This document shows positions 22,408 through 38,718 of a DNA stretch of 64,000 bases, one piece after another. The notes under the pieces are model-generated. The model was given only the letters and a program-made list of their open reading frames with translations, ran no database searches and was not told the origin of the DNA. The stretch comes from Parcubacteria group bacterium. Its GTDB lineage: Bacteria; Patescibacteriota; Minisyncoccia; Moranbacterales; JAKLHP01. Each line of letters begins with the position of its first letter. Positions within the stretch are counted from its first letter, which is position 1. The position numbers and the translations under genes are program-made. The stretch is from positions 14,255-78,254 of the forward strand of contig JBBABD010000001.1 of NCBI GenBank assembly GCA_041657845.1, written 5' to 3'.

Positions 22408-24075
22408 ATGGAATATTTGAAAAAAATTATTAAAAACGAATACGCAATCTTAGCCATTGTAATACTTGTCGCCATATTTTTAAGATCGTATCAGCACAAA
22501 AATTTTCTTGGTTTTCATCTGGATCAGTCAAGAGACGCCATAATCGTCGGCGATTTTATAGATGATTTTTCAAAGATTCCTCTTCTCGGACCCCACACCA
22601 GCGGCAGTAATCTGCAATTGGGACCGGCTTATTATTATCTTCAAGCCATTCCCGTCTTTTTTTTGGGAAAAAGCCCGGAAAATTTTGCTCTAGCTGACTG
22701 GTTTTTTTCTATTCTCTTTGTTTGGCTCTTGTATTTTTTCCTTCGCCTGTATTTTTCCAAAAATATTTCCCTGTTACTTTCGGCTATGGCCGCCGTTTCG
22801 CTTTTCTTGGTGATTTACGGACGCTTTGCTTGGAATCCCAATTCGCTTCCTTTTCTCACGCTACTGGCGCTTTTCGGACTCCTCAAAGCCGACTGGAAAA
22901 ATACTGTCCGCCCTGAATGGTTTTATCTGGGCATATTCGGAGCTGCTGTCGCCACTCAGCTCCATTATGTCTATTTTTTCATGGCGCCTATTATCTTCAT
23001 TGCTTATATCGCCGTCTGGAAGCCGCGTTTGAAAATAAAGCATTATTTAGCAGGGATTCTTATCATCTTAGCAGTCTATTTCCCTATGGTTATCAGCGAA
23101 ATAAAAACCGGCGGCGCGAATACCCAGTTATTAATAAAAAATACTTTCGAAAGAGGCCTCGAGGGCGGAGACAACAAACACAACGTGATCGACAAAGCCT
23201 TCTATGCTTACCAAAAATTGCAGATGACCAACTGGCAAATAATCACGTCCGACGAACACGGAAGTTCTATGCAGCTTTCCAAAAAATTTATCCCTGTCTG
23301 CAAGAAGGAATGCCGGAATGATTTTCCCTTTTTCATTCTTCAAACTTTTCTTTTTGTTTTCGGTCTTTGGGCCGGAATTTCTTCTTACCGCCGCGAACAG
23401 AATCGGGACCGGAAAAAATATATATTTTCGACCTGGCTATGGCTTGGATCAATGTTTATAATTTCCATTCCAATAATATACAATATGAGTCCGCATTATT
23501 ATTTGGCGGCTGCGGCTCCTTGCTTTGTGTTTTTAGGAATATCGCTTCAAAAAACAAGCAACTGGGGGAAATATGGAAAAATAATTATACTTTTCCTGTC
23601 TGCCGCCATCATTCTTTTTAATTTAAGAAACACTTTGATCTATTTGAGAGAACACGCAGCCAGCGCCAAAGGAGAAGTGGAAAATACCATTGGACGAGAG
23701 CTTTATAATGATAAGAAAATCACATTGGAACAATTAGAAGAAACAGTTAAATACATCAAAGAACACAGAAATCCAAATACAACCGTGAGAATTGCAGCTG
23801 ATAATTCTTACGCCCGAGCCGTATTTTATCTTCTGAAGCATCAAGAAAATATACCCGCCTGCTATACCAAAACCAGCGCTTTTCATCCATCAGGAAGTCT
23901 GGATTATTTTTTGGTTTACCGCTTGGGCGTTAATCAGGAAATGCCACAAGATCTGGAAGGGCAATTTTCTATTCGCAGCCAAGAAAAAATCGGCAATCTG
24001 CTGATAATAGATGCCGAGGCGAAAAATCCAGGAGGGAAGCCGGGAAAAGATGAGAAATGCTTTGACTATTTGTAA
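22408..24075 (+). CDS. GT-C-fold membrane glycosyltransferase (GT39-like), paralog 4.
   Basis: Its signature is 'FLRSYQHKNFLGFHLDQSRD...IPLLGPHTSGSNLQLGPAYYY'. Confidence 0.6.
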   Translation: MEYLKKIIKNEYAILAIVILVAIFLRSYQHKNFLGFHLDQSRDAIIVGDFIDDFSKIPLLGPHTSGSNLQLGPAYYYLQAIPVFFLGKSPENFALADWFFSILFVWLLYFFLRLYFSKNISLLLSAMAAVSLFLVIYGRFAWNPNSLPFLTLLALFGLLKADWKNTVRPEWFYLGIFGAAVATQLHYVYFFMAPIIFIAYIAVWKPRLKIKHYLAGILIILAVYFPMVISEIKTGGANTQLLIKNTFERGLEGGDNKHNVIDKAFYAYQKLQMTNWQIITSDEHGSSMQLSKKFIPVCKKECRNDFPFFILQTFLFVFGLWAGISSYRREQNRDRKKYIFSTWLWLGSMFIISIPIIYNMSPHYYLAAAAPCFVFLGISLQKTSNWGKYGKIIILFLSAAIILFNLRNTLIYLREHAASAKGEVENTIGRELYNDKKITLEQLEETVKYIKEHRNPNTTVRIAADNSYARAVFYLLKHQENIPACYTKTSAFHPSGSLDYFLVYRLGVNQEMPQDLEGQFSIRSQEKIGNLLIIDAEAKNPGGKPGKDEKCFDYL

Positions 24076-24092
24076 TCAAGTTTGCCTAAAGG

Positions 24093-24929
24093 CTATTCCT
24101 GCCAAAACCAGCGATAAGAAAGAAGATCGAATGTCCTATAGTTTCCTTCCATTCCTTCAAGAAGAAAAGCCGGCATTCCGACATATTCGATGCCGTTTTT
24201 TTCTTTTTGCCACGGAAGATGCAGATGCCCGGAAAAAACATATTTAACATTTTTCTTTTCAAATTCCTCAATCAGAGGCCTGTAAACAGGATGGATTCTT
24301 TCCGCATTATCCCAATCCCAAACCGGATGATGCATTGCCACAATTATATTTTTTTCGGTATCGGAAACCTCTCTGAACCAATCCAATTGCTTCTTGGTTA
24401 TTCCTTCTTTGTAAGGATCATTTTCTGATTTATCATTCGTATCCAGAACGATGATTCTCCAATTGTCGTAATCTTCGTAGAAATAGGTTCCATTTATTCC
24501 TAAATAATTTATAACATCTTCTTTGTCGTGATTTCCCCTGGCCCATAAAACCTCCATTCCGGATTGATCGATGATATCTTTCATCACTTGGGCATATTTA
24601 AGCGATGGGGTATTAAACTGATCGCCAAGCGAAACAAGAAGACTAACGCCTTCCAACTTCATTTCATTTAGCGCTTCGGGAAGAAATTCCACAAAATCAG
24701 CTGGATATATCACATTTCCGGGCGTATTTTGCTCCATTGATCTTCTGTCTTGGCTGCCGGCATGTATATCAGACACAAAAGAAACTCTAAAAACTTTTTT
24801 TTCGAGAATTTCAGGACAGTCTCCGTCCAAAAGCTTTCTAGAAAAAATAAATCCCAAAATAAAAAAAGTAAGAAAACAGAAAAAAAGCAAGACAAAAACA
24901 AATATTTTTATTTTCATTGATTTTTCCAT
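24093..24929 (-). CDS. Membrane-anchored metallophosphoesterase, paralog of 21623..22402.
   Basis: It has an N-terminal TM helix and the motifs 'VSDIHAG', 'LGDQFN', 'RGNHDKED', 'AMHHPVW' and 'SGHLH'. Confidence 0.75.
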   Translation of the reverse strand: MEKSMKIKIFVFVLLFFCFLTFFILGFIFSRKLLDGDCPEILEKKVFRVSFVSDIHAGSQDRRSMEQNTPGNVIYPADFVEFLPEALNEMKLEGVSLLVSLGDQFNTPSLKYAQVMKDIIDQSGMEVLWARGNHDKEDVINYLGINGTYFYEDYDNWRIIVLDTNDKSENDPYKEGITKKQLDWFREVSDTEKNIIVAMHHPVWDWDNAERIHPVYRPLIEEFEKKNVKYVFSGHLHLPWQKEKNGIEYVGMPAFLLEGMEGNYRTFDLLSYRWFWQE

Positions 24930-24953
24930 TTTAAAGCAATCAAAAAAACAAAC

Positions 24954-25901
24954 CTATTTTTTAATCCTGATCCATTTGCCGAAGTCGCGTTTCCCTTTTA
25001 GATAAATCGGAAAGGCTGTGATATTGGCCAATCCTTGAAGAAAACGATTAAGAATCGCTACCATAACTACCGCTGAAATATTAATCCCTAGCGGAACAAA
25101 AAAAGCCGCATAAGCCCATTCCTTGAGCCCTACTCCCGCCGGTATGGAGGAAACGATGCTTATGAGAAAAATGACCGAAAAATAATCCCAAATATTTATG
25201 TTGATCCCCAGACTCCAGAACAAAACCAGATTAGCTAGTCCTACTCCGATTAAATTAAAAAGAAAAGAATAGGCCAAAGATTCAAAGAAAATTTTCTTGT
25301 TTTTTCCAAAACTAGACAGCTCGCGCAAAAAATTTACCGCTTTATCAGGAAGATATCCGAGAATTTTCTTGGCAAAAGCGGTTTTTCTGGTTTTAAAAAA
25401 AATAGTCAGCCCGATCAGCAATCCCAAAATAATCAAATTAGCCACAGTGATAAAATAAATTCCTGAAGCTTTTTGAAAATTAAGAATAAAGAAAATCGGC
25501 GACATCAGCATAAGAGCCAAGAGTCCGGTAAAACGATCCGCTACCACTGTCGAAGAAGCCTCGGAATATTTTTTTTCTTTTTTCCCGATTTGATATGCCC
25601 GAAAGATATCCCCTCCAATTGTTGAAGGAACAAAATTATTAATAAACGCTCCAGTCAGGTATAACTTGAAAAAATTTAAGAAAGAATCTTTCAGGCCCTT
25701 GTGAAGACAAAGTTTTTGCCACTTTCTGGTAGAAATAAAAAGTCCCAGGAAAATAACTGCCAGATAGGCTATGACCTGCCAAATTTCAATTTTTCTGAGG
25801 TATTGCCATGATTCGCCCCAATCGACCTTAACAATAAGAAATCCAATAAAAACAGCACTTAGCAGAATTTTTAAAATAAGTTTTATGGTTTTATTTTTCA
25901 C
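24954..25901 (-). CDS. Lysylphosphatidylglycerol-synthase-TM-like / 'flippase-like domain' membrane protein.
   Basis: 315 aa with ~8 TM helices and a 'GGDIFRAYQ' block. Proteins of this kind commonly sit next to GT2/GT4 genes. Confidence 0.5.
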   Translation of the reverse strand: MKNKTIKLILKILLSAVFIGFLIVKVDWGESWQYLRKIEIWQVIAYLAVIFLGLFISTRKWQKLCLHKGLKDSFLNFFKLYLTGAFINNFVPSTIGGDIFRAYQIGKKEKKYSEASSTVVADRFTGLLALMLMSPIFFILNFQKASGIYFITVANLIILGLLIGLTIFFKTRKTAFAKKILGYLPDKAVNFLRELSSFGKNKKIFFESLAYSFLFNLIGVGLANLVLFWSLGININIWDYFSVIFLISIVSSIPAGVGLKEWAYAAFFVPLGINISAVVMVAILNRFLQGLANITAFPIYLKGKRDFGKWIRIKK

Positions 25902-25923
25902 AAGAATATAATCCGTTAATTCT

Positions 25924-27105
25924 TTAATTCGTTAATTCGTTAATTTCATAATAAATCTTCACATATTGAACTGCCACTTTTTCCCAGCTCATCGTTTCGG
26001 CTTTTTTCCGACTCTCATCCCCCATCTCAGCTCTTAGTTCTCTGTCTTTTGCTAAAGTTTCTAATTTTTCCGCAATATCCTGGCTGTCTTTCATTTTAAT
26101 GATAAACCCATTCACTCCCTCCTCCAGAAGTTTTCTGGCTCCCCCAGTATCAGTTGCCACAAGAGGAAGACCGGACGACAAAGCTTCAAGCATCGCATTG
26201 CTCATTCCTTCATTAAGAGACGGCAAAACGAAGATGCTAGCTTCCTGATAATACGGAAAGGTTTCTTCCCGCGGAATGCGGCCGGTAAACTCCACATTCT
26301 TTTTTATTCCCAATTCTTTGGCCAGTTTTTCCAAATTTTCTTTTTCATTTCCATCCCCCATTACTTTCAAATATATTTCAGGATATTTGGAAATTAAAGT
26401 CCTAATCGCTTCCAGCAAATAATTAATTCCTTTTCTAGCTGTCACTCTTGAAGCTCCAACGGTTATGATCAGCTTGCCATCGGGCCTTTTTTTCGGATCC
26501 GGAGTAAAATCTGAAATATTAATTCCATTGGGAATGACTCCGATTTCTTGTTTCAAATTAGTTTTTAATGCTAGCTCTTTTAAATCATTGCTGTTAGCAA
26601 TCACTCCTGAAGATTTTTTCCAGATAAGCCTTGTCAGGGGTTTGATGAATTTATATAAAAATATAAAACGATCGCTGTATCCCGGAACGTCGCTGCCGCG
26701 AAGAGAAATAATATACGGAATTTCATACTGCCATCTCAGAAGAAGCGAAATGAATCCGCAAGGAATTGTGAAAAACGAATGACTTAAATCATATTTATTC
26801 TTTCCGACAAGTTTTTTGGAAAAAAAATAAGCCTTCCAGAGATAAACCAACAGATCTTTTTGCGACTGATAATGCAGATTGTTTTGGTTTTTTCCAATCG
26901 GAAGCCGGTGAATGAAAATATTTTCTCCGATTTTATCAAGATGATAATTGGAATCTATGGAAGATGTGATCAAATCCACTTCCAAGCCGGAAATCTTGGA
27001 ATATTCTTCCAAAATATAGGCGGTGGCATTGGCCGCCCCGCCGCCCAGCGGCGGATATTCGTAATTGAAGAAAAGTATCTTCATATAACATATAGCATAA
27101 AACAT
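25924..27105 (-). CDS. GT4 glycosyltransferase.
   Basis: It has 'MKILFFNYEYPPLGGGAANA' at the N-terminus and 'PSLNEGMSNAMLEALSSGLPLVATDTGG' in the C-terminal domain. Confidence 0.8.
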   Translation of the reverse strand: MFYAICYMKILFFNYEYPPLGGGAANATAYILEEYSKISGLEVDLITSSIDSNYHLDKIGENIFIHRLPIGKNQNNLHYQSQKDLLVYLWKAYFFSKKLVGKNKYDLSHSFFTIPCGFISLLLRWQYEIPYIISLRGSDVPGYSDRFIFLYKFIKPLTRLIWKKSSGVIANSNDLKELALKTNLKQEIGVIPNGINISDFTPDPKKRPDGKLIITVGASRVTARKGINYLLEAIRTLISKYPEIYLKVMGDGNEKENLEKLAKELGIKKNVEFTGRIPREETFPYYQEASIFVLPSLNEGMSNAMLEALSSGLPLVATDTGGARKLLEEGVNGFIIKMKDSQDIAEKLETLAKDRELRAEMGDESRKKAETMSWEKVAVQYVKIYYEINELTN

Positions 27106-27181
27106 ATAACAATATGCTATGTCTTTTGCTTTTTTAATTTATTGTCTTGTTACATGCTACATGTTTCATGTTACATGAATT
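27106..27181. promoter_or_regulatory. Intergenic palindrome/direct-repeat cluster between ugd and the GT4 gene (possible terminator or operator).
   Basis: An inverted repeat 'catatagcata...tatgctatg' is followed by three copies of 'tacatg'. Confidence 0.2.
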
Positions 27182-28489
27182 TTAGTTCCTTCCCACTCCC
27201 ACATATTCAAACCCTTCTTTCCTAATCGTTTCGGGATCATAGACATTTCGAAGATCAACGAAAACCTTGCCTTTCATTATTTTTTTGAGTTTGTCAAAGT
27301 CAAGTGAACGATATTCATTCCATTCGGTCATCAAAATTAAGCAATCAGCATCTTTGAGCGCCTCGTATGGATCATCGACATAAATAAGTTCTGGCATATA
27401 TTTTTTGGCTTCTTCCATTCCGTGAGGATCAGTCGCCACAATTTCCGCTCCTTTTTCTTTTAGGGCTGGCAAAATAGTCAGTGCGGCTGAATCGCGCATA
27501 TCATCGGTTTCCGGCTTGAAAGTAAGTCCCAGACTGACAATTTTCTTTCCCGCTTCGCTCCCGCCCAAAGCTTTTCTGATTTTCCCTACCATTCTGGCTT
27601 TTTGCGCGGAATTTACTTCAATTACCGTTTCAACAATTCGAATCGGAGATCCGTGTTCCTGCGCAATCCGGCAAAGCGCCAACGTATCTTTAGGAAAACA
27701 GGAACCGCCATATCCCGGTCCGGCATGAAGAAATTTCTTTCCGATTCTTCCATCCAATCCCATACCCTTCGACAAGTCAACCACATTGGCTCCGATTGCT
27801 TCGCAGAGATTGGCAATTTCATTAACAAAACTGATTTTAGTCGCCAGAAAAGCATTAGATGCATATTTGATAAGTTCAGCTGTCTGAAGATTAGTGAAAA
27901 CGATCGGAGTTTCAATGAGATATAATGGTTTGTAAATTTCTCTCATCGCATCTTCAGCTTTTTTGCTGCTAACCCCAACCACTACCCTATCCGGATGCAT
28001 AAAATCTCCAATAGCTGATCCTTCGCGCAAAAATTCCGGATTGGAAGCCACGTCAAAATCAGCTTCCGGATTAGCTTCTTTGATTACCCTTTTCACTTCT
28101 TTGGCTGTTCCGACTGGTACAGTGCTTTTATCCACAATCACCGTGTAATCCTTGAGCCACGGAGCAAATTCTTTGGCTGCTTCATAAACATAAGTCAAAT
28201 CAGCATATCCATCGCCACGTCTGGAAGTTGGAGTTCCCACCGCAATAAAAATCGCATCCGCTTCTCCGATAGCTTTCTTGGCTTCGGTGGTGAAAGTTAA
28301 TCTTCCCGATCTCACATTTTCCGCCACCATTTGATCTAATCCCGGTTCATAAATTGGGATTATTCCTTTTTTGAGATTTTCAATTTTTTTCTCGTCCTTG
28401 TCCACGCACGTAACAAAATGTCCGAACTCCGAGAAGCAAGTTCCGGAAACAAGACCGACATAACCGGAACCAATTACTACAATCTTCAT
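27182..28489 (-). CDS. ugd: UDP-glucose 6-dehydrogenase.
   Basis: It carries the Rossmann motif 'MKIVVIGSGYVG', the catalytic 'GGSCFPKD' block and a complete three-domain architecture. Confidence 0.9.
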   Translation of the reverse strand: MKIVVIGSGYVGLVSGTCFSEFGHFVTCVDKDEKKIENLKKGIIPIYEPGLDQMVAENVRSGRLTFTTEAKKAIGEADAIFIAVGTPTSRRGDGYADLTYVYEAAKEFAPWLKDYTVIVDKSTVPVGTAKEVKRVIKEANPEADFDVASNPEFLREGSAIGDFMHPDRVVVGVSSKKAEDAMREIYKPLYLIETPIVFTNLQTAELIKYASNAFLATKISFVNEIANLCEAIGANVVDLSKGMGLDGRIGKKFLHAGPGYGGSCFPKDTLALCRIAQEHGSPIRIVETVIEVNSAQKARMVGKIRKALGGSEAGKKIVSLGLTFKPETDDMRDSAALTILPALKEKGAEIVATDPHGMEEAKKYMPELIYVDDPYEALKDADCLILMTEWNEYRSLDFDKLKKIMKGKVFVDLRNVYDPETIRKEGFEYVGVGRN

Positions 28490-28614
28490 TTTATCAATTT
28501 ATGAAATATTCGGATAATGAAATAAAAATACTTACTTTATACCTAAATGTATCCTATGACATTTTCCCGATTTCATTATTAATGATTAATTTATTTTTTA
28601 TTAAAATTATTCAA

Positions 28615-29334
28615 TCAGCAAATAATCGAGCCTGCCTTTTCTCCCAGTATTATTTTTTTCAAAGTTCCTTTTTTGTAAATATTGAAAACAACTACGTGCA
28701 AACCATTGCTTCTGCACAATTCAATAGCCGATTTGTCCATTACTTTTATTTTATCATTTTTGAAAGCTTCTTCAAGCGTCAATCTATCAATTTTTTTAGC
28801 TTTAGGATTATTTATTGGATCATCATTATAAACTCCATCTACTTTTGTAGCCTTAAATATTGCTTGGCATCCTACTTCTAACGCTCTCATTGTTGCAGCT
28901 GTATCAGTTGTAATAAAGGGGAGGCCGGTTCCCCCTCCAAATATGACAATCCTTCCCTTCTCAAGATGTCTAATAGATTTTCTCCTAACATAACTTTCTG
29001 CAATTTGTTTCATCTCTATGGCAGACTGTAATCTTACCTGAAGTCCTCTTTGCTCTAAAATATCTTGAAGAGCCATTCCGTTAAAAATGGTGGCTAGCAT
29101 TCCCATGTAATCAGCCGTAGCTCTATCCAAACCATTTTTACTGCCTGCAACTCCCCTAAATATATTACCCCCGCCCACAACAATAGCTATTTCTATTCCT
29201 AGCTTATGCGCTTCAAAAATTTCTGAAGCAATATAATTCATAAAAATTGGATCAATCCCATATTCTCTTTCTCCTTTCATAGCCTCACCGGATAGTTTAA
29301 GCAATATTCTCTTGTAATTCATTTTTTTACTCAT
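28615..29334 (-). CDS. pyrH: UMP kinase.
   Basis: It has 'ILLKLSGEAMKG', 'IAIVVGGGNIFRG' and the full amino-acid kinase fold signature. Confidence 0.9.
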   Translation of the reverse strand: MSKKMNYKRILLKLSGEAMKGEREYGIDPIFMNYIASEIFEAHKLGIEIAIVVGGGNIFRGVAGSKNGLDRATADYMGMLATIFNGMALQDILEQRGLQVRLQSAIEMKQIAESYVRRKSIRHLEKGRIVIFGGGTGLPFITTDTAATMRALEVGCQAIFKATKVDGVYNDDPINNPKAKKIDRLTLEEAFKNDKIKVMDKSAIELCRSNGLHVVVFNIYKKGTLKKIILGEKAGSIIC

Positions 29335-29395
29335 TTTTATTTATATAGAATTTACACTTTTTAGCAAAAACTGCAAAAGTTTATAAATCTATAAA

Positions 29396-30865
29396 TCAAA
29401 ATAATTTAACATTTACTAGAGGATTTCTGCCCTTGTATCTTTTTGATGCCGATTGATAAACAGCACTACATAGGCTTATCCCGTTTTTATGACTAGTTAT
29501 CTCTGAAACAGGATTTATTTTATTTCCTTGAATAAATGAAATAAATTCTAAGATTGCTTCTCTCCTAGCATCTTCTTGGTGTCCTCTTGACCTTCCATGA
29601 AGATAGTTTTTACCCAATTCCTTAATGCTAAATTTTTCGTAATTTTTCCATTCAGAAAAATAATTGTCATTTCTGAAAACATGAATATCCAAATGATATT
29701 CATTTCCTACTTCATACAAATTATTTGTAATATTAGGTTTTACTTCTCTCGATTGAAATGAATTGAAATGAATTGCCTGAAACGGACCTTGCTCTATGAT
29801 ATGCGACTCATGTCTTATCCGTCCATTTCCTTTATACAAATCCTTTCCGGCTAAACTCAACCAACCTCTTTTAGAAAAACCATTATGAACGAGATTGACA
29901 CTAGCTAAAGTAATAATAGACTTATCTCTCTTGAAAGCAAAGGAGCAGAAAGAATCTATTTCTCCAAAACGTTTATATAATTTCTTTAATTTTTCGAAAT
30001 TATACTTGTTATATGAATTAAAACTAGGAAAAATCTTCTCATAATCTTCCTTTCCAATCTGATTCAAAAAATCCGAAGGCCTCATAAAATTTGAAAATAC
30101 ATCGACATTGTTTGCCTTTTTTCCCTCATCAGCCGCTTTCATGAGCCACATAATTATATCAAAAAAATGATAACCGCTATGTGAACATTTTCCATAACCA
30201 TGGTTAAATGAATGGTAATCCACATCCATAATCTCATTTGGCAATCTCCACTGCCCATCGGAATGGAAAGATTGAATTGATGTTATTGGACAATTCGTTT
30301 TGTCAAACACCTCCCTGACTAGATTTCTAATTTTTTCAAAAGCAGGATGATATCTTCTTTGAACTGCTAAACTGAATAATATTCTTACGTATTTTTTCTT
30401 GGCCTTTTCGTAAACTTTAATAATTTTTTCATAATCATTAATTAATTTTTTCGCTGAAAATTTTGAGGTACTCAAATTATTATGCACCGACAATGGCTTA
30501 TCCATCAAAACATTCAGTCCTTTTTCTAGCGCCCACTGAGCATAAACAATATGACTTTCTGGACCAGTAGAAATAATGACCCCTTGAATGGAAAATTTAT
30601 CAACAATCTCATCTAGCTTCATTTTTATCGAAGATCTCAACCCATTGGATTTGAAATCTTTAGATAAAAAATAATGCATCTCCAGACTGGGATTACCTTT
30701 TTCAGAAAGATAATTCTCAATATCATCCTTTTTTTCTATGAGATCTAAAACACAAACAATCCGAAAATTATATTTTTCTCCATCCTTTAAAAACACAGGA
30801 AAATATATTCTTTTTGCATGAGATCCTAGACCAATAAGCAGCACATTTGTTATTTTTTTATTCAT
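29396..30865 (-). CDS. Gfo/Idh/MocA-family NAD(P)-dependent oxidoreductase (long form, 489 aa).
   Basis: It has 'VLLIGLGSHAKRIY' (Rossmann) and 'VIISTGPESHIVYAQWALEKGLNVLMDKPLS', the conserved EKP block of the family. Confidence 0.65.
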   Translation of the reverse strand: MNKKITNVLLIGLGSHAKRIYFPVFLKDGEKYNFRIVCVLDLIEKKDDIENYLSEKGNPSLEMHYFLSKDFKSNGLRSSIKMKLDEIVDKFSIQGVIISTGPESHIVYAQWALEKGLNVLMDKPLSVHNNLSTSKFSAKKLINDYEKIIKVYEKAKKKYVRILFSLAVQRRYHPAFEKIRNLVREVFDKTNCPITSIQSFHSDGQWRLPNEIMDVDYHSFNHGYGKCSHSGYHFFDIIMWLMKAADEGKKANNVDVFSNFMRPSDFLNQIGKEDYEKIFPSFNSYNKYNFEKLKKLYKRFGEIDSFCSFAFKRDKSIITLASVNLVHNGFSKRGWLSLAGKDLYKGNGRIRHESHIIEQGPFQAIHFNSFQSREVKPNITNNLYEVGNEYHLDIHVFRNDNYFSEWKNYEKFSIKELGKNYLHGRSRGHQEDARREAILEFISFIQGNKINPVSEITSHKNGISLCSAVYQSASKRYKGRNPLVNVKLF

Positions 30866-30875
30866 ACTAATAAAT

Positions 30876-32252
30876 CTAGTGGATCTTTTCCCTCATTAAA
30901 TGAGCAAAACAAAATGGATCCCCTCCCAATAGCTTCCCGCCCTTAATCTTCCCTCCGGTCAAAATGACAGTTGATCTGCATTTTCCTCTGCATTCTTTTT
31001 TATAGAAACTACATTTCAAACAATCTATCTTTTTAGCATTTCTATAATGTTCCGCCATTGAATGATGCCATATTTCATCAACTGACATGCCTATAGCATT
31101 CGGACCAATAAATTCGGGGTAATCAATAAGAAATGGGCATGCCACAACCCTACCGTCAGGAAGAATGGAAATATCCCTAATTAATGCTCCGCATTCTGAA
31201 TTATCAAAGGGGAACGGATTTTGAGATTTATCCTTTAAATTATAATTAAACAAATCCTTGTGTTTTAAGAGGACTTTAATTCCAGAATTGATAACTTCTT
31301 TTTTACTTCTTAAATCTTGAATTTTTTTAGCAAATTTTTTATATTGGTTCGCAGTTAGAATCAATTTATTGGTATCGTTGTCAATCGCTCTTCCTGATGG
31401 TTTTAATGGAATAAAATTTATGTCGCATTTATATTCCATAGCCACTTCCACTAAAAAATCTGTTTCTCTTATATTATCAGATCCAATAGCCACATTGATT
31501 ACAACTGGTATTTTATTTTTCGAATTTTCATTATATTCATGAAGTTTTTTAAGATTTTCCGCTACCAAATTATATGCTCCTTTTGTTCTTCTTTTATCAT
31601 TGATTTTTTCACTGCCCTCAAGACTTATTACCAAATCCCTAATGCCAGAATTAATAATTTTTTTAAACATTTCATTATTCCAGCACCCATTGCTATTGAG
31701 ACTCACCACCATCCCTAAACCATTTGCGTATTTTATAGTTTCAAATAAATATTTATCAACTGTCGGTTCACCGCCGGTAATCCGCCACTCCGTCGCACCA
31801 GCATCAAAAAACTTTTTAATGATTTTTCTTGTTTGATTGATTGTGCGTTTTTTTTCTGAAAAATTGATATTTCCACTTCTAGCGTAGCAATGATGACAGT
31901 TTAAGTTACACTTTCTTGTAAATGTATCATATACCCTCAGAGGCGCACTGAGACAATTTTTTGATTTTATACTTTTAGATTTTACCAGCCTGCAATTACT
32001 AATACATATTTTATATGCATTTTTTTTAATTAATCCCATTTTCACAAAATCCTCAACATTTTTTTCATTGCTTTCGTTTATAGATTTAATATCTATAGAT
32101 CCTTCATGACAAAGATACTCCAAAAAGTTAAATTTTCCTGAATCTATAATACTTATTTCTCCAGATAGAGAATCATATATCAAACCTCCAAAATATTCAT
32201 TTCTTATGGTGAATCTTCTGGATCTAAATTTCTTTTTATTTTTTCTGATCAT
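30876..32252 (-). CDS. Radical SAM enzyme with a C-terminal SPASM/twitch-type auxiliary Fe-S domain and a ~110-aa N-terminal extension.
   Basis: The radical-SAM motif 'CNLNCHHC' (CX3CX2C) is present. The C-terminus carries 'C-x13-G-x4-C' and 'CLKCSFYKKECRGKC' (Cx2Cx6Cx3C). A 10-bp gap separates it from the downstream oxidoreductase. Confidence 0.8.
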   Translation of the reverse strand: MIRKNKKKFRSRRFTIRNEYFGGLIYDSLSGEISIIDSGKFNFLEYLCHEGSIDIKSINESNEKNVEDFVKMGLIKKNAYKICISNCRLVKSKSIKSKNCLSAPLRVYDTFTRKCNLNCHHCYARSGNINFSEKKRTINQTRKIIKKFFDAGATEWRITGGEPTVDKYLFETIKYANGLGMVVSLNSNGCWNNEMFKKIINSGIRDLVISLEGSEKINDKRRTKGAYNLVAENLKKLHEYNENSKNKIPVVINVAIGSDNIRETDFLVEVAMEYKCDINFIPLKPSGRAIDNDTNKLILTANQYKKFAKKIQDLRSKKEVINSGIKVLLKHKDLFNYNLKDKSQNPFPFDNSECGALIRDISILPDGRVVACPFLIDYPEFIGPNAIGMSVDEIWHHSMAEHYRNAKKIDCLKCSFYKKECRGKCRSTVILTGGKIKGGKLLGGDPFCFAHLMREKIH

Positions 32253-32348
32253 TATTTTAATCTTAAATGAAAAATTTAATCATAAAACGTTAAAAAACCA
32301 ACAAATTAAATCCTTAATTCGCAACTTTTTTAATAATATTAAATCCGT

Positions 32349-33287
32349 TCAATTCTCAATTATTTCTTTTACCGAATAATTCATCGTTCCTCTGGTCTTG
32401 TAATAATTTTTGAGCAGAATGTCAGCCAGAAGTCCAAAGATAAAAAGCTGGATTCCCACCATAATTAGAAGTGCGCCGATAAGAGGCCAGATTCTTTCTG
32501 AAAGAGCTGTTCTGAAAAATATTTTTTCCACTGCCATCCAGATTAAAACTGCAAAGCCGGCAAACAGACAGAACATTCCTCCGCCACCGAAAAGATGGAC
32601 CGGACGATTGGAATATTTTCGCCAAAACCAAATGGAAACCATATCCACAATGCCTTTGACTCCCCTTTTCCAATTGTATTTCGTTGTTCCGTGAACTCGG
32701 GGGAAATGATTGACTTTTATTTCTCCGACTTTATATCCATCAAACTGCAAAATAGCTGGCATAAAACGATGCATTTCTCCAAAAAGGTCGACATCTTTGA
32801 AACATTCGCGCTTGTAAGCTTTGAGACTGCACCCGCTATCATGAATATTGTCTTCTACCAGAACCTTCCGAAGCAGATTGGCCATTCGAGAAGAAAGCTT
32901 TTTCATAAAATCATCTTTCCTTTGCCATCTCCATCCGGAAACCACATCGAATCCTTCATTCATTTTTTCTAATAATAATTTGATGTCTTTGGGATCATTT
33001 TGCAGATCGCCGTCCATCGTGATGATAACATCGCCTTTGGCCGCTTTTATTCCGGCATCAAATCCGGCCGTCTGGCCGTAATTTTTTCGGAACCGGATAA
33101 GTTTTAACGGTGTCAGTCCTTCGCAATTTTTGGCCGTTTCATCAGTCGATCCGTCATCGATAAAAATAATCTCGTAGGTTTTGCCGAGAGGCTCGCAAGC
33201 CTCGACAATCCTCTTGTGAAGTTCTTTGGCGTTGTCTTCCTCATTATAGATAGGAACGACAACGGAAATGTCTAGTTTATTGTCCAT
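32349..33287 (-). CDS. GT2 polyprenyl-phosphate glycosyltransferase (ArnC/GtrB/DPM1-like) with C-terminal TM helices.
   Basis: It has 'ISVVVPIYNEEDN...IIFIDDGSTDET', 'ITMDGDLQNDP' and two C-terminal TM helices. Confidence 0.85.
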   Translation of the reverse strand: MDNKLDISVVVPIYNEEDNAKELHKRIVEACEPLGKTYEIIFIDDGSTDETAKNCEGLTPLKLIRFRKNYGQTAGFDAGIKAAKGDVIITMDGDLQNDPKDIKLLLEKMNEGFDVVSGWRWQRKDDFMKKLSSRMANLLRKVLVEDNIHDSGCSLKAYKRECFKDVDLFGEMHRFMPAILQFDGYKVGEIKVNHFPRVHGTTKYNWKRGVKGIVDMVSIWFWRKYSNRPVHLFGGGGMFCLFAGFAVLIWMAVEKIFFRTALSERIWPLIGALLIMVGIQLFIFGLLADILLKNYYKTRGTMNYSVKEIIEN

Positions 33288-33354
33288 AATAATGATTTTA
33301 TCCGATTTCTAAAGAATTGGCAAATGCACCGAATCTAGAAAATCAATAGCCATA

Positions 33355-33428
33355 AAACAGAAGCTTGACTTTAATAATTATGGTGTTAAAATACACATAT
33401 ACATTAATAATTATGGTGTTAATTATAT
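33355..33428 (+). promoter_or_regulatory. Putative sigma70-type promoter with flanking direct repeats upstream of the AAA ATPase gene.
   Basis: 'ttgact' is followed by a 16-nt spacer and 'taaaat'. A 19-bp direct repeat 'ttaataattatggtgttaa' occurs twice, overlapping the -10 element and the start codon. Confidence 0.3.
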
Positions 33429-34668
33429 GATAGATATTCGCAGAAAATTATTCGATGAATTGAAGAATAACCTTAAAACAAAGGAAATTTTACTAATTGT
33501 TGGACCTCGCCAAGCCGGAAAAACAACCTTAATGAACAAACTCCGGATTTTCCTTGAGGAAAAGGGAGAAAAAAGCGTCTTTTTGAATTTGGACTTTGAA
33601 AAAGATGCGGCTTCGTTCGTTTCCCAAGATGCTCTTGTTAGAAAATTAGAATTGGAATTAGGAAAAGAAAAAGGGTTTGTTTTTATAGACGAAATTCAAA
33701 GGAAAGAAAATGCCGGACTTTTTTTGAAAGGAATCTACGATATGGAATTGCCATACAAATTCATTATCTCCGGTTCGGGAAGTTTGGAGCTTAAAGAAAA
33801 AATACATGAATCTCTGGCTGGAAGAAAAAGAATATTTGAACTTTCCACGGTCAGCTTCGAAGAATTTGTTAATTTTAAAACTAACTACAAATACAGCCAA
33901 AAACTGAACGATTTTTTTTCCATTGAAAATGAAACATCATTGTCTCTTTTGAATGAATATCTTAATTTTGGAGGATATCCGAGAGTCATCCTAGAAAGCA
34001 TGCTCGCGGAAAAAAATAGGACTATCAGTGAAATATTCAGAAGCTACACCGAAAAAGATATCGCCTATTTTTTAGGAGCAAACAAGATCGAAAAATTCGG
34101 ATTGTTAATAAAACTTTTAGCCGACCAATCCGGAAAAATTATTAACTATTCGGAATTGGCCAAAGAAACAGGAATAAGTTTTCAGACGTTGAAAAATTAT
34201 CTTTGGTATGCTGAAAAAACCTTTTCTATTCGGACAATATCACCGTATTTCAAAAACAAACGCAAAGAAATAACCCGTTCTCCGCTAGCATATTTCTACG
34301 ATTTGGGTTTTAGAAATTTCTCGCTAGGGTTATTTGGCAATCTTGCTCAACCAGACCAGCTTGGATTTGTTTTTCAAAATCTTGTCGCAAACAGACTGCA
34401 TGAAAAAATAGCAAATACTGCTAAAAACTTGGGTTTCTGGAGGACACTGGATAAAGCCGAGGTTGATTTCATAATTAGTGAGGGGAAATCAGCTCTTCCT
34501 GTTGAAGTAAAATATTCACGGCTTAAAAAGCCTCAAATAACCAGATCTCTTGGAAATTTCATAAAAGCATATTCTCCCACTGAAGCTTGGATTGTAAATT
34601 TGACTTTAGAAACAGAAATAAAAATAGAGAATACAACAGTTAAATTCATACCTTTTTACAAATTATAA
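33427..34668 (+). CDS. AAA+ ATPase (AAA_14 / DUF4143-type ATP-binding protein).
   Basis: It has the Walker A motif 'LLIVGPRQAGKTTL' and Walker B motif 'FVFIDEIQ'. The C-terminal domain is typical of DUF4143. Confidence 0.65.
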   Translation: MIDIRRKLFDELKNNLKTKEILLIVGPRQAGKTTLMNKLRIFLEEKGEKSVFLNLDFEKDAASFVSQDALVRKLELELGKEKGFVFIDEIQRKENAGLFLKGIYDMELPYKFIISGSGSLELKEKIHESLAGRKRIFELSTVSFEEFVNFKTNYKYSQKLNDFFSIENETSLSLLNEYLNFGGYPRVILESMLAEKNRTISEIFRSYTEKDIAYFLGANKIEKFGLLIKLLADQSGKIINYSELAKETGISFQTLKNYLWYAEKTFSIRTISPYFKNKRKEITRSPLAYFYDLGFRNFSLGLFGNLAQPDQLGFVFQNLVANRLHEKIANTAKNLGFWRTLDKAEVDFIISEGKSALPVEVKYSRLKKPQITRSLGNFIKAYSPTEAWIVNLTLETEIKIENTTVKFIPFYKL

Positions 34669-34710
34669 AGTAATTGACGCTCGAACAGACTGGCAGTATA
34701 ATTTATTTAT

Positions 34711-34887
34711 GAACATTACGAAATGCGATATTTGCAAAAAAACAATAAAGAAAGACTCAAAAAGCCTATATATAGGATTGGGTAGTATTTTTTCTAATCA
34801 TATTGAAATATGTGAAAATTGCGGAAAACCTGTAATGAAACTGCTAAAGGATAAGAAGCTAATAGAAAGTAAGCGAACTAGCTAGAA
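34711..34887 (+). CDS. Possible small zinc-ribbon protein (58 aa).
   Basis: 'CDICKK...CENCGK' forms two CxxC pairs. No clear Shine-Dalgarno sequence is seen. Confidence 0.25.
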
Positions 34888-34980
34888 AAAAATTCAGATG
34901 CAAGACTCAAAAAACCAGCCGTGCGCCGGATTTTTGTTTGGCAATAAGTCCAAAATTTGCTATAATTGAAGCGTTAAAAA

Positions 34981-36450
34981 TTGAAAAACAAAATGATGAA
35001 GAAAATAATCGCTTTTTTTGTGTTTTTGTCATTCTTGTCCGCTTTCTTCCCCAGCACTAGACCCGCCAAGGCGGATGATAGTCTTGTTTCGGTATATAGC
35101 TTTTGGAGCAAAACATCTTCTTATCGTTTTTTGACTTCATCGGCATCGGAAATCAAAAGCCTCTCTTCAAACAGCAACTGGGAAAGTGAAGGAATCTTGT
35201 GGTATGCCTATTCATCAAAGCAAAATGATACTGTTCCTATTTATAGAATAAAAAGTAGCACATACTCATATTATTATTACACGGCTTCAAAATCAAAAAG
35301 GAGCAGTTTGATAAAAACAAAGGGCTGGGTCGACAAAGGAATTGCTTTCTATGCCTATGCCAGCAAGCAAGATGCCACAACGCCTGTATATGCGCTAAAA
35401 AATTCAAAAACCAAAAAATATTTCTATACTTCAAGCCCGGGAGAAAAAAATTGTATGCTAACGGACAGCACATGGACTGGCGGAGAAACGGCTTTTTGGG
35501 TTCCAAAAGAAAATGCCAACGTCTCAGATTATGAAACCACCTGCCGAGCATCTTATGGACCGGAAATTAGCGTTGGTCTCTGGAGCTATACCAAAAAGGA
35601 TTTGCAAAGTGGATATTTCAAAATAAAAGCCAACAAGGATTATACGATAAAAGATAAGGATGGAGACAGAATAACTACAATTTCGGCAGGCACCATAACA
35701 AAAGTGAAATACAATGGAGATAAGGATCTTTTGGTTTATAGCTCAATAAAAGACAGGACATTCAGCAAAGAAGTGAGCTTTGACGCCAAAGATGGAAATA
35801 ATTCCAATCTGGTTTTTGACATCTACCGCCCCGGATCCAGCTACGATCAATATCGGGGAAAGATAAAAATAAAATATTATGACAACGATAACATTTGGGT
35901 TGTCAACACTCTTCCGATGGAACAATATGTCTGGGGAATGGGAGAAACGACGGGAACCGGACCATTCGAGCACACCAAAGTTATGACCACAATGTTCCGA
36001 ACTTACGGCTATTGGTACAAAGAATACGCCACCAAATATTTGAAATATGGATTCACCATCCGAAGCGATTCAGGATCCCAAATTTATCGAGGTTACGATT
36101 GGGAGAAAAAATATCCCAATATCAAAAAAGCGGCGGAAAGTACCAAGGGAATCATTGTTAAATATAAAAACGAGATTGCGCTGACTCCATACAGTTCTTG
36201 GAGCGATGGAAGAACTCGAAGTTTTGAAGAACGCTGGGGATCGGATGATTACCCATGGTGTAAATCAGTAAAGGATCCGTACGGAAAACATCCATCGCTT
36301 AGTACCAAAAAGCTGGAAGCGGCCGGAAATCATATGGTCGGACTGATTGCCAACGGATCACTAAAACTGGCCGGAAGCAAATACAAAAAGAAATATGACT
36401 GGATACTCAAATATTATTACACCAAAGTATCGCTTGCGAAAATGTATTAA
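34981..36450 (+). CDS. Secreted SpoIID/LytB-domain protein with an N-terminal array of ~45-aa repeats.
   Basis: It has a signal peptide and three repeats of the 'W..EGI..YAY.S.Q..T.P(I/V)Y' type. The C-terminal 'NTLPMEQYVWGMGE...FRTYGYW' matches the SpoIID/LytB motif. Confidence 0.5.
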   Translation: MKNKMMKKIIAFFVFLSFLSAFFPSTRPAKADDSLVSVYSFWSKTSSYRFLTSSASEIKSLSSNSNWESEGILWYAYSSKQNDTVPIYRIKSSTYSYYYYTASKSKRSSLIKTKGWVDKGIAFYAYASKQDATTPVYALKNSKTKKYFYTSSPGEKNCMLTDSTWTGGETAFWVPKENANVSDYETTCRASYGPEISVGLWSYTKKDLQSGYFKIKANKDYTIKDKDGDRITTISAGTITKVKYNGDKDLLVYSSIKDRTFSKEVSFDAKDGNNSNLVFDIYRPGSSYDQYRGKIKIKYYDNDNIWVVNTLPMEQYVWGMGETTGTGPFEHTKVMTTMFRTYGYWYKEYATKYLKYGFTIRSDSGSQIYRGYDWEKKYPNIKKAAESTKGIIVKYKNEIALTPYSSWSDGRTRSFEERWGSDDYPWCKSVKDPYGKHPSLSTKKLEAAGNHMVGLIANGSLKLAGSKYKKKYDWILKYYYTKVSLAKMY

Positions 36451-36494
36451 CGGAGTTATAAGATTGGGACTTACGCATTTTAAATAATAATTAT

Positions 36495-36604
36495 GTCATC
36501 CTGCGAAAGCAGGAATCTACGCAAACGATAATTGAGAGTTTAACGTGTAAATATCATACTGGCGTAATTCGATAATGTAGATTCCTGGTCAAGCCAGGAA
36601 TGAC
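36495..36604. repeat. MITE-like element, copy B, inverted relative to copy A.
   Basis: The reverse complement aligns to 3899..4010. The terminal hairpins are identical apart from one indel, and the internal ~55 bp is ~75% identical. Confidence 0.7.
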
Positions 36605-36644
36605 AACCAAACGCGTAATTTATAAAAATTATAAAATTTTCAAG

Positions 36645-37175
36645 ATGTTTAAAAAGATTATTCTGATATTATTCATAATCGCCCTGGGATTGCTGGCCTA
36701 TTTCGCCTATCCGATTGTTAAAAATCGCTATTTTAAAAACGAAAGTTCAATTAAGAATGAAGAACAGGGATCAAATGAAAATACAATCATGAATAATGGA
36801 AATGAATCAGAAGATGAAAAAAACAACACCAGTGATGTTGAAAACGAAGAAAACTCAGCTTCAAGCAACGAAGTTAAGGATGAAATTGACGAATCAGGAG
36901 ATGCTGTTAACATTACAGCCAAAGATTGCGACAATGAATGTTTAAATTTCCAAGAGAATGAAAGCAGTTTAAGATATTGTCAAGACATCTGCGACATTTC
37001 TTCGACCAAGGACAGTGATAATTGCGAAAGCAAAACCGGAACAGATAAGGATTACTGCTTCAAAAATCAAGCAGTTGCAAAAACCGATCTGAAAATTTGC
37101 AATTCAATAGCTGATGCAAAAATAAAATCCGCCTGTAAAAACCGAGTGACAGAAGATTTGCTGGAAAATCAGTGA
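36645..37175 (+). CDS. Membrane-anchored acidic Cys-rich hypothetical protein.
   Basis: The probable start is 'MFKKIILILF'; the longer ORF from 36600 would run through the MITE. It has a TM helix, a low-complexity acidic region and ten or more Cys in the C-terminal half. Confidence 0.4.
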   Translation: MFKKIILILFIIALGLLAYFAYPIVKNRYFKNESSIKNEEQGSNENTIMNNGNESEDEKNNTSDVENEENSASSNEVKDEIDESGDAVNITAKDCDNECLNFQENESSLRYCQDICDISSTKDSDNCESKTGTDKDYCFKNQAVAKTDLKICNSIADAKIKSACKNRVTEDLLENQ

Positions 37176-37221
37176 TGCTAATATGCAAATCTTATGCTAA
37201 TCTGCTAATTGCGAATAAATT

Positions 37222-37617
37222 ATGAGGAGAGATGAATTAATTTACTCTGATTTGTCTTATGAAATATTCGGCATATTATTCAAAGTCCAAAATGAATTAG
37301 GCAGATATTGCAATGAAAAGCAATATGGAGATTCTATAGAAGAAAAATTAAAAGAAAACAAAATTAGCTATGCGAGAGAAAAAACATTGCCAGTGTCGTT
37401 TGAGGGAGAAAAGATAAACAGAAATAAGGTTGATTTTATCATAGAAAACAAAATAATATTAGAATTGAAATGCTCCAATTTCACTACTAAAGAAAATTAC
37501 TACCAATTAAGAAGATACCTTTCTGCATATAATTTGAAACTTGGAATTTTAGTAAATTTCAGGGATAAATATCTAAAACCAAAAAGAATATTAAATTCAG
37601 AATGCAAAGAGTATTAA
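37222..37617 (+). CDS. GxxExxY-family protein (PD-(D/E)xK-like small protein).
   Basis: 131 aa. 'ELGRYCNEKQYGDSIEEKL' and the C-terminal 'LKLGILVNF' fit the family. It is flanked by inverted repeats. Confidence 0.5.
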   Translation: MRRDELIYSDLSYEIFGILFKVQNELGRYCNEKQYGDSIEEKLKENKISYAREKTLPVSFEGEKINRNKVDFIIENKIILELKCSNFTTKENYYQLRRYLSAYNLKLGILVNFRDKYLKPKRILNSECKEY

Positions 37618-37677
37618 GATATATTAGCATGAAATAATTCGCGGCATTCGCATCAATTAGCATATTAGCATCATATT

Positions 37678-38355
37678 ATGAAAATTTTTATCGTTATTCC
37701 CGCTTTTAATGAAGGAACTGTGATTCAGGATGTTATAAGAGAAATAAAAGAAGAAGGATATGAAAATATTATCATCGTTGACGATGGAAGCAAGGATAAT
37801 ACCTATTCAAAAGCCAAAGAAATAAAAGGGATTACTGCCCTGAGACACAAAATCAATCGAGGAAAAGGAGCGGCTACCAAAACCGGCATTGAAGCGGCAA
37901 AATTGCTTGGAGCTGATATTATTGTTACAATGGATGGAGATGGACAGCATGACCCCAAAGACATCAAAAAACTCGTAGAACCGATAATCAAAAATGAATT
38001 CGACGTTGTTTTGGGCACAAGACTTAAAAATCCCGAGGGTATGCCCTTGTACAAGAGATTGCATAATTGGATCGCAAATCTGGTAACTTGGTACTTGTTT
38101 GGCATCTGGGTAACCGACAGTCAGTCGGGTTTTCGCGTTTATTCGCGAAAATCCGCAGATTCAATCAACACAAGATATGATCGGTATGAATATGACAGCG
38201 AGGTAATCCGAGAAATTTATTTGCGAAAACTCAGCTTCACGGAGATCCCAATCACTGTCAGATATACTGAATATTCTATGGGAAAGGAACACGGCCAAGG
38301 AATTATAAACGGATTCAAAACGTTATACAAAATGATTTGGAGGCTAATGAATTAG
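37678..38355 (+). CDS. GT2 polyprenyl-phosphate glycosyltransferase (soluble DPM1-like).
   Basis: It has 'FIVIPAFNEGTVI...IIIVDDGSKDNT' and 'VTMDGDGQHDP'. Confidence 0.75.
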   Translation: MKIFIVIPAFNEGTVIQDVIREIKEEGYENIIIVDDGSKDNTYSKAKEIKGITALRHKINRGKGAATKTGIEAAKLLGADIIVTMDGDGQHDPKDIKKLVEPIIKNEFDVVLGTRLKNPEGMPLYKRLHNWIANLVTWYLFGIWVTDSQSGFRVYSRKSADSINTRYDRYEYDSEVIREIYLRKLSFTEIPITVRYTEYSMGKEHGQGIINGFKTLYKMIWRLMN

Positions 38356-38373
38356 ATCATTATAAACGCCACT

Positions 38374-38718
38374 ATGAAATTACAACTTTATCAAATCATC
38401 ATTTTTGCAATCTCCGCTTTTATGATTTTTCAGGGAGTCAAAAACTTTATCAGCGGTAAAAGCGGACAGACAATCTACAAACTATCGATTCGAATAATTG
38501 TTTGGGGCGGAATGGCAATTGTTACCATTTTCCCCAAGCTTATTCATCTCTTGGCCAAAACTCTCGGGATCATAGATAATATGAATGCGGTAGTTTTGAC
38601 CGGATTTCTGCTGGTTTTTCTGATGATATTCAAACTGCTCTCGGCTATTGAGCGCCTAGAGCAACAGCTTTCGGAGGTTACCAGAAAAGACGCGCTAAGA
38701 GGAATGAAAGACAAATGA
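38374..38718 (+). CDS. Small membrane protein (DUF2304/GtrA-like partner of GT2).
   Basis: 114 aa with 3-4 TM helices. It lies immediately downstream of the GT2 gene. Confidence 0.45.
   Translation: MKLQLYQIIIFAISAFMIFQGVKNFISGKSGQTIYKLSIRIIVWGGMAIVTIFPKLIHLLAKTLGIIDNMNAVVLTGFLLVFLMIFKLLSAIERLEQQLSEVTRKDALRGMKDK

Follow-up and report, generated by a model that had tools for sequence, protein, structure and literature searches.

A conserved pairing of a SuiB-type radical SAM/SPASM enzyme with a long Gfo/Idh/MocA-like oxidoreductase in Parcubacteria and related genomes

SuiB, the maturase that introduces the Lys-Trp cross-link of streptide, and its relatives CteB and SkfB combine three parts: a recognition element (RRE) for peptides made on the ribosome and modified after translation (RiPPs) or a comparable N-domain, a radical S-adenosylmethionine (rSAM) core, and a SPASM/twitch domain. 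Radical chemistry on a sugar is carried out by AprD4, a radical-SAM 1,2-diol dehydratase that works with the NADPH-dependent reductase AprD3 in the C3'-deoxygenation of paromamine (PMC5461906). Here we describe an rSAM/SPASM enzyme of 458 amino acids (aa) with the same architecture as SuiB, encoded on the minus strand (30876..32252) of a 64,000-nucleotide (nt) stretch of DNA from a Parcubacteria group bacterium (contig JBBABD010000001.1), hereafter the window. Only 10 nt separate its gene from that of a 489-aa protein (29396..30865, minus strand), which we predict to be a long, NAD(P)-dependent, sugar-type oxidoreductase of the Gfo/Idh/MocA fold (here Gfo-like). Both open reading frames (ORFs) had been placed correctly, to the nucleotide, by an initial annotation of this DNA. 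The two proteins fall into established superfamilies, and the novelty lies in the conserved tie of an RRE-type rSAM/SPASM enzyme with enzymes of sugar or nucleotide type, and with no peptide. A search of the full-text literature found no description of such a cassette.

The three domains of the rSAM enzyme were delimited from its translation and from matches to PF04055, PF13353 and PF13186. The core (residues 111-251, PF04055 at 68.9 bits against a cutoff of 29.5) carries the CxxxCxxC cluster motif as CNLNCHHC (residues 115-122; 31887..31910, minus strand), and the SPASM domain (30909..31193, minus strand) matches PF13186 over residues 354-414 (24.3 bits, cutoff 21.5). Across 27 aligned homologues, C115, C119, C122, the GGE motif T159-G160-G161-E162 and seven SPASM cysteines are invariant. 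These cysteines are spaced C354-x12-G-x4-C372, C411-x2-C414-x6-C421-x3-C425 and C448, with x6 where the canonical motif (C-x9-15-G-x4-C...C-x2-C-x5-C-x3-C...C) has x5, and they are consistent with two predicted auxiliary 4Fe-4S clusters. The enzyme thus has the features that define the rSAM superfamily, CxxxCxxC and the GGE motif for SAM binding in a partial TIM barrel, the barrel being seen in an AlphaFold2 model (pLDDT 85, pTM 0.88) together with the N-terminal strands and helices and the SPASM domain. No NCBIfam equivalog came near its cutoff: the mycofactocin maturase MftC (TIGR03962) was best at 105.1 bits against 265, and the scores were 74.9 against 284 for MoaA, 65 against 349 for the anaerobic sulfatase-maturating enzyme (anSME) and 60.6 against 180 for viperin. 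Since the MoaA score is so low and no QueE-family model figures among the 25 best NCBIfam matches, the earlier view that this is a true rSAM/SPASM protein and not a member of a housekeeping clade holds.

The enzyme is 100% identical to a database protein (P0001) that bears no more specific name than "radical SAM protein [Parcubacteria group bacterium]". About 42 homologues align over the full length, N-terminal extension included, at 39-51% identity; their sources are labelled Parcubacteria, Nealsonbacteria, "Patescibacteria" and Omnitrophota. When HMMER was run exhaustively with the profile of the family, only about a dozen 50%-identity clusters scored above 300 bits, and beneath them came a lower-scoring continuum (387 proteins at E<=1e-30). 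From this we take the close family to be small and well separated. Several family-specific Arg and Lys residues are conserved (R136, K147, R221, R222, R288, R404, K408), which would be in keeping with a substrate that is anionic.

About 100 aa precede the rSAM core (31953..32252, minus strand). The extension contains a near-invariant motif, R-x-E-Y-F-G-G-x-x-x-D (also written R-x-E-Y-F-G-G-L-L-x-D), and in the model it has a beta-beta-beta-alpha topology, with strands at residues 14-19, 22-27 and 32-36 followed by helices at 38-50 and 60-72, as in a winged helix. Over its full length the family profile can be aligned with SuiB (query 10-428), and likewise with CteB. In the hidden Markov model (HMM) alignment, residues 10-100 fall on SuiB 28-129, and the FGG motif of the family falls on FRLEKFGGILIN of SuiB, whose aligned N-terminus includes the stretch RLEKFGGILIN. 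When ten isolated N-terminal domains of the family were searched with the Pfam PqqD model (PF05402), no match was obtained even at E<=10. The suggestion in the initial annotation that this extension, put there at about 110 aa, is RRE-like is therefore supported by the SuiB alignment and the topology, and not by the PqqD model. On the profile alignment, the domain is homologous to the recognition domain of SuiB.

Structural comparison places the modelled enzyme in the same company. Foldseek ranked SuiB first, over 475 columns, with CteB and SkfB lower in the same ranking. The comparison scores were 25.2 for anSME, 24.1 for ChlB, 22.8 for PqqE, 22.2 for both CteB and viperin, 21.7 for BlsE, 21.6 for MoaA, 19.1 for DesII, 13.7 for BtrN, 10.6 for SpeY and 10.2 for AprD4. 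Judged from its model, the fold thus goes with the peptide maturases SkfB, SuiB and CteB and not with BtrN, DesII or AprD4. A kinship with carbohydrate-oxidising enzymes of the BtrN type had been considered at first, and the low BtrN and SpeY scores do not bear it out; enzymes of that type are twitch proteins with a single auxiliary cluster. By homology, the protein is an RRE-rSAM-SPASM enzyme of peptide-maturase type rather than a BtrN-like sugar enzyme.

The partner protein was assigned from PF01408, which is just above its cutoff (25.1 against 24 bits) and covers only the N-terminal Rossmann part, from its motifs, and from an AlphaFold2 model (pLDDT 89.7); no NCBIfam model reaches its cutoff. 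Foldseek matched the model to Gfo/Idh/MocA sugar oxidoreductases at E values of 1e-17 to 1e-14 (best 8e-18) and 11-14% identity. The top matches were glucuronide-3-dehydrogenase, 1,5-anhydrofructose reductase, glucose-fructose oxidoreductase, scyllo-inositol dehydrogenase and DgpA, and levoglucosan dehydrogenase was matched as well; target-normalised TM scores were 0.65-0.77. The nearest folds are thus those of oxidoreductases that act at C1 or C3 of sugars. The motifs are GxGxH (12-16), TxPxxH (100-105), DKP (122-124), GxGKxxHxGYHxxD (223-236) and QRRxH; DKP and GYHxxD (231-236) are invariant in the family, as are further blocks in its longer C-terminal half (YKGNGRxRxE, GPFQ, FRN, SRGHQEDA), and C192 is near-invariant. 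We conclude from the fold model and these motifs that the protein is a Gfo/Idh/MocA-fold oxidoreductase, with predicted use of NAD(P). Its family, with 741 matches of which at least 120 show at least 49% identity, is far larger than that of the rSAM enzyme.

The gene neighbourhoods of both proteins were compared over 112 loci, fetched through the rSAM enzyme (23 genome loci), through the Gfo-like protein (80 metagenome loci) and through exact-protein look-ups, and mapped by tblastn and by clustering of crude gene calls into families. Wherever a close rSAM homologue comes with sufficient flanking sequence, it is accompanied by a Gfo-like gene, whose product shares 48-56% identity with the window protein, so that the pairing first noticed in a single genome is real and conserved. 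The usual order is Gfo-like gene then rSAM gene, often with a 4-nt overlap (L071-76, L090); in the window the two genes are still adjacent and their order is inverted. Seven of the loci (L011, L012, L015, L016, L017, L020, L022) come from records labelled "uncultured Gammaproteobacteria" (metagenome-assembled genomes of the binchicken co-assembly). They carry a cassette and neighbours typical of the candidate phyla radiation (CPR), and their labels look doubtful.

Among 79 non-redundant Gfo-like loci, 29 contain the rSAM gene. Just over half of these (15) also encode an APH-family kinase and a ComB-family (PF04029) phosphatase, in the order kinase, Gfo-like, phosphatase, rSAM; three have ComB only, and in nine the rSAM gene is the sole addition. 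In one such cassette (L031) start and stop codons are tightly packed, and the cassette genes are probably translationally coupled. For the kinase the sole match is to PF01636, a generic model (34-46 bits), and sequence searches gave no informative PDB relative for it. We also explored whether the ComB-like protein might be an alpha-ribazole phosphatase, which would have provided a cobamide link to a B12-dependent ribonucleotide reductase, and dropped the idea because CobZ is MJ1330, which is not known to be the ComB protein of M. jannaschii. Parts of the cassette are duplicated in some loci: in L003, L004 and L008 (L003 54-2897) the rSAM gene lies between two ComB-like genes that have diverged to 40% identity, and L050 has two APH-family kinases.

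A second arrangement is found in 37 of the 79 loci, where NUDIX and/or thymidylate-kinase-like (Tmk-like) genes accompany the Gfo-like gene without rSAM; the two modules meet in a single locus. The Gfo-like proteins follow the same division, 61 of 62 sequences having a nearest neighbour of their own type, which makes the rSAM-linked and NUDIX/Tmk-linked subfamilies phylogenetically coherent. The flanks of this sister subfamily (L030, L052, L057, L058, L063, L065, L069, L085, L111 and others) consist of a small NUDIX hydrolase, for which NudB is the best model, below cutoff, and a thymidylate-kinase-like P-loop protein of 230-250 aa; some loci add an HD protein, a second NUDIX protein or a 400-aa protein without a Pfam match (family f8).

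Other genes beside the pair or its Gfo-like member point to the metabolism of phosphorylated or activated small molecules. We found an NTP_transferase (PF00483), a HIT protein, an APH/fructosamine-kinase-like gene and a methyltransferase (L017/L036); RGP (GT75), an epimerase, PIG-L, Wzy_C and a family 4 glycosyltransferase (GT4; L005/L055); a HAD Cof-type phosphatase with a 2H phosphoesterase (L013/L050); and, in L100-type Gfo-like loci, a family 2 glycosyltransferase (GT2) with an O-methyltransferase, NUDIX and Tmk. HD, CYTH and HIT genes are further recurrent neighbours, and a class II (B12-type) ribonucleotide reductase lies divergently adjacent in 14 non-redundant loci.

A more distant rSAM clade (29-40% identity), from CPR and DPANN genomes, occurs in multi-rSAM clusters (L019 7709-14269; L021-L025) made of a B12-binding rSAM protein, a 328-aa SPASM rSAM protein and between one and four RRE-rSAM paralogues, together with a DUF4922 protein that is always present. 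DUF4922 is a domain of GDP-hexose phosphorylases (PMC9871823, PMC7041677). A 788-aa protein (P0174), considered as a possible Rosetta-stone fusion, turned out to be merely two fused rSAM paralogues. In L019, L022 and L023 a small downstream protein without a Pfam match looks MazG-like by eye.

The surroundings of the pair in the window are another matter. The genes there all run in one direction on the minus strand, spaced by 10-125 nt, and no terminator that convinces was found between them: a GT2 gene for an ArnC/PgfS-like polyprenyl-phosphate glycosyltransferase (32349..33287; PF00535 at 115.6 bits, NF007986 at 173 bits, below cutoff), the rSAM and Gfo-like genes, pyrH for UMP kinase (28615..29334; TIGR02075 at 296.9 bits against 243.9), ugd (27182..28489), a GT4 gene (25924..27105), an LPG_synthase_TM flippase-like gene (24954..25901) and a metallophosphoesterase gene (24093..24929). 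Pfam and NCBIfam bear out all these identities, as first annotated. The initial annotation had taken this run for a polyprenyl-sugar operon and had named conservation of the neighbourhood in relatives beforehand as a test. In tblastn searches with the GT2, ugd, GT4, flippase-like and metallophosphoesterase genes, none was found beside the rSAM gene at any other locus, and pyrH adjoins the pair elsewhere only in L056, where it follows the Gfo-like gene (a 92%-identical relative on 1.5 kb of sequence). The GT2 of the window was also compared with that of the L100-type loci, and an equivalence was rejected, as the two are unrelated beyond the generic fold. The conserved unit is the rSAM-oxidoreductase pair, and not its GT2/pyrH/ugd/GT4/flippase context.

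Homology and context therefore lead in different directions, the one to a peptide or protein maturase and the other to the metabolism of small-molecule phosphates, sugars or nucleotides. Our preferred reading, to which we tentatively give a probability of roughly 40%, is that the two enzymes are functionally coupled within a small-molecule pathway, widespread among CPR bacteria, for the tailoring of a phosphorylated or nucleotide-activated sugar, with the rSAM enzyme performing a radical step and the Gfo-like protein acting as its redox partner. We weight context slightly more than homology because RiPP precursor genes almost always adjoin their maturase, because the SPASM clade already includes enzymes that do not act on peptides, and because the pair survives rearrangement. 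The proposal of a sugar substrate, already put forward in the initial annotation, thus draws on the context seen elsewhere (APH-type kinase, NTP_transferase, HIT/DUF4922, RGP, epimerase, GT2) and gains nothing from homology: as the glycan genes of the window are not conserved and the homology is of maturase type, it rests on context.

In such a pathway, the APH-family kinase would phosphorylate a scavenged sugar, to be nucleotidylated next, in certain genomes, by an NTP_transferase or a HIT enzyme. The rSAM enzyme would abstract a hydrogen atom by means of the 5'-deoxyadenosyl radical, its two auxiliary clusters handling the electron; the reaction would be a dehydration, an oxidation, an epimerisation or a decarboxylation. 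The NAD(P)-dependent Gfo-like enzyme would make or reduce an adjacent keto group, possibly following the logic of a radical dehydratase with a partner reductase as in AprD4/AprD3, and the ComB-like phosphatase would release the product. In the window, the pair may have been inserted, with its order inverted, into an envelope-glycosylation island of about 45 kb, where the product could feed the assembly of lipid-linked glycans. Its position beside an ArnC-like GT2 and ugd is locally compatible with the glycan idea and is not a conserved feature. Of all this, the domain architecture, the Fe-S motifs, the folds and the conserved linkage of the genes are observed, and the class of substrate, the sequence of steps and the chemistry are inferred.

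Several points weigh against a sugar-tailoring pathway. We know of no characterised enzyme carrying a SuiB-type RRE whose substrate is not a peptide. Kinase and phosphatase are absent from about a third of the rSAM loci, including this Parcubacteria genome, where neither lies near the pair in the window. The NUDIX, Tmk-like, ribonucleotide reductase, HIT and pyrH neighbours fit free nucleotides equally well, and no specific substrate can be named.

The strongest alternative, a serious one although we regard it as rather unlikely, is that the rSAM enzyme is a peptide or protein maturase, RiPP-like or of the anSME or QhpD kind, whose RRE-like domain recruits a substrate encoded elsewhere, its partners being tailoring enzymes or unrelated. 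The full-length profile alignments to SuiB, with the N-terminal FGG motif, and to CteB speak for it, as does the complete seven-Cys SPASM domain typical of that clade; the best NCBIfam models are also peptide maturases (MftC, GeoRSP, SbtM, DynA), although all are far below cutoff. The N-terminal domain, by contrast, escapes the PqqD model, and the operon partners are small-molecule enzymes whose stop and start codons overlap with one another. The loci themselves offer no peptide. Clustering of ORFs of at least 25 aa across 18 loci gave none conserved outside the enzyme genes, and the gene families of the 112 loci include no conserved small ORF, protease or transporter/exporter, so that an adjacent precursor, usually with a protease or exporter, as expected of a RiPP cluster, was found at no rSAM locus. 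Small ORFs flanking the pair that were tried as precursors proved spurious (e.g. read-throughs of tRNA genes and RadC fragments), and none of the small ORFs at 24000-38400 in the window, some 6-8 kb around the pair, is conserved elsewhere. The lack of a precursor ORF nearby, remarked upon at the outset, therefore extends from the window to the related loci.

One small ORF of the window deserves mention. It lies at 34709-34885 (plus strand), between the genes for an AAA_14/DUF4143 ATPase and a DUF5648+SpoIID protein, and encodes 58 aa with two CxxC pairs, resembling a zinc ribbon. It is the only Cys-rich small ORF near the rSAM gene, and none of the 112 related loci has it, which makes it an unlikely precursor for the rSAM enzyme. 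The ATPase gene (family f24; 33427-34668, plus strand) also turns up near rSAM or Gfo-like genes in unrelated loci (L003 7007-8317; L058), and is probably mobile or of defence type, and not a member of the cassette.

A doubtful alternative is that the substrate is a free nucleotide, modified at the ribose or the base by a viperin- or MoaA-like radical rearrangement or dehydration followed by keto-reduction, yielding a modified or deoxy nucleotide in CPR salvage. The recurrence around the Gfo-like gene of class II ribonucleotide reductase, four NUDIX families and two Tmk-like families, as well as HIT, HD, CYTH, MazG-like and pyrH genes, would fit this, and the PADLOC pVip model gives the rSAM enzyme 63 bits. 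That score reflects a generic similarity of the rSAM core; PADLOC defence models found nothing in the partner proteins, and the viperin and MoaA models of NCBIfam stay far below their family cutoffs, as given above. The reductase, moreover, is divergently transcribed and may represent plain synteny. The Foldseek neighbours of the Gfo-like protein have, in every case, a free or glycosidic sugar or an inositol as substrate and not a nucleotide, and the NTP_transferase, RGP, epimerase and glycosyltransferase genes point to sugars.

It is very unlikely that the rSAM enzyme is a dedicated maturase of the Gfo-like protein, introducing a cross-link or modified residue as anSME does in sulfatases and QhpD in quinohemoprotein amine dehydrogenase (QHNDH), or the maker of a mycofactocin-like cofactor for a Gfo-type nicotinoprotein: the strict adjacency of the two genes, MftC as best NCBIfam model, a window GT2 that adjoins the rSAM gene as MftF does in mycofactocin clusters and the near-invariant C192 would all agree with this, but about half of the loci of the much larger Gfo-like family lack rSAM, no residue or Cys cleanly separates 27 rSAM-linked from 35 NUDIX/Tmk-linked sequences (C192 occurs in both), which led us to reject maturation of the Gfo-like protein as the main explanation, and the MftC score is far from its cutoff, MftA/B/D/E-like neighbours are lacking and the GT2 is not conserved.

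Returning to the small-molecule pathway that we prefer, one may speculate on how it arose, in a scenario we hold to be unlikely in its full detail. A SuiB-like rSAM enzyme with its RRE would have been recruited from peptide to small-molecule chemistry and, with a dedicated long Gfo-like reductase, would carry out a radical dehydration followed by reduction of the keto group, in net terms a deoxygenation, or a similar reaction on a phosphorylated or nucleotide-linked sugar or a ribonucleotide. This would be part of a CPR-specific four-gene salvage or tailoring pathway, in which the RRE-like domain would have no leader peptide to bind and would take hold of the substrate or of a partner enzyme. 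The four genes (kinase, oxidoreductase, phosphatase, rSAM) often adjoin the gene for the B12-dependent ribonucleotide reductase.

The wider region around the pair, from 1 to 47000 of the window, is an envelope-glycosylation island. It comprises GT2 genes (1265-2215, 11532-12269 and 37678-38355, in addition to the one at 32349-33287), GT4 genes (2785-3888, 6305-7429 and 38715-39863, besides that at 25924-27105) and Wzx-type flippases (9891-11459, 40815-42338). A second, truncated ugd-type gene stands at the window start (20-904), and the island also encloses genes for RtcB (7446-8939) and for a thymidylate kinase (8948-9559). Five paralogous membrane glycosyltransferases of the PMT_2/GT-C (ArnT/PMT-like) type are found between 12270 and 24075, at 12270-14036, 15741-17519 (minus strand), 17606-19957, 19979-21613 and 22408-24075. 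Two paralogous metallophosphoesterases accompany them, one within the run (21623-22402) and the other just past its end (24093-24929, minus strand). Such density is unusual in a CPR genome of small size. Neither Rfam families nor tRNA were found in the window.

CPR/Patescibacteria genomes are tiny and poor in biosynthetic pathways. A cassette of four genes that many of their lineages have retained is therefore likely to matter to the cell, for its scavenging lifestyle or its surface. If the substrate is a sugar or nucleotide, an RRE-type "peptide maturase" scaffold would be working on a small molecule, and this would call for caution in predicting RiPP clusters from the RRE-rSAM-SPASM architecture alone. 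If it is a peptide encoded elsewhere, the cassette would be unusual among RiPP-like systems in having tailoring enzymes of sugar type. Under either reading it is a defined set of four enzymes that can be tested, and the sister module of Gfo-like, NUDIX and Tmk-like genes, itself uncharacterised, provides a natural comparison.

How, then, does this pair relate to systems already described? With SuiB, CteB and SkfB the rSAM enzyme shares only 16-20% identity, and the R-x-E-x-F-G-G motif and the seven-Cys SPASM domain are common to it and SuiB. Unlike those maturases, it is encoded without precursor, protease or exporter, next to a sugar-type oxidoreductase, a kinase and a phosphatase. Mycofactocin MftC is likewise an rSAM-SPASM protein; its recognition element is the separate MftB, whereas here the RRE is fused to the enzyme. 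With the carbohydrate-acting BtrN, SpeY, DesII and BlsE the radical SAM core is held in common, the BlsE matches being confined to it (query 113-233), and a ugd gene lies two genes downstream in the window. AprD4 and AprD3 resemble the pair in logic and not by homology, in that an rSAM enzyme is coupled with a nicotinamide-dependent oxidoreductase on a sugar; AprD4, as far as we know, has no RRE-like domain. The Gfo-like protein has the fold, the Rossmann motif, the TxPxxH motif and the GxHxxD-type catalytic region of Gfo/Idh/MocA sugar oxidoreductases, yet is some 110-150 residues longer, with extra helices and hairpins, and has DKP where they have EKP. Finally, the sugar salvage routes of the AmgK/MurU and NahK type join an APH-fold anomeric sugar kinase to a sugar-1-phosphate nucleotidyltransferase, and the same combination, an APH-family kinase with a PF00483 NTP_transferase, accompanies the pair in L017/L036.

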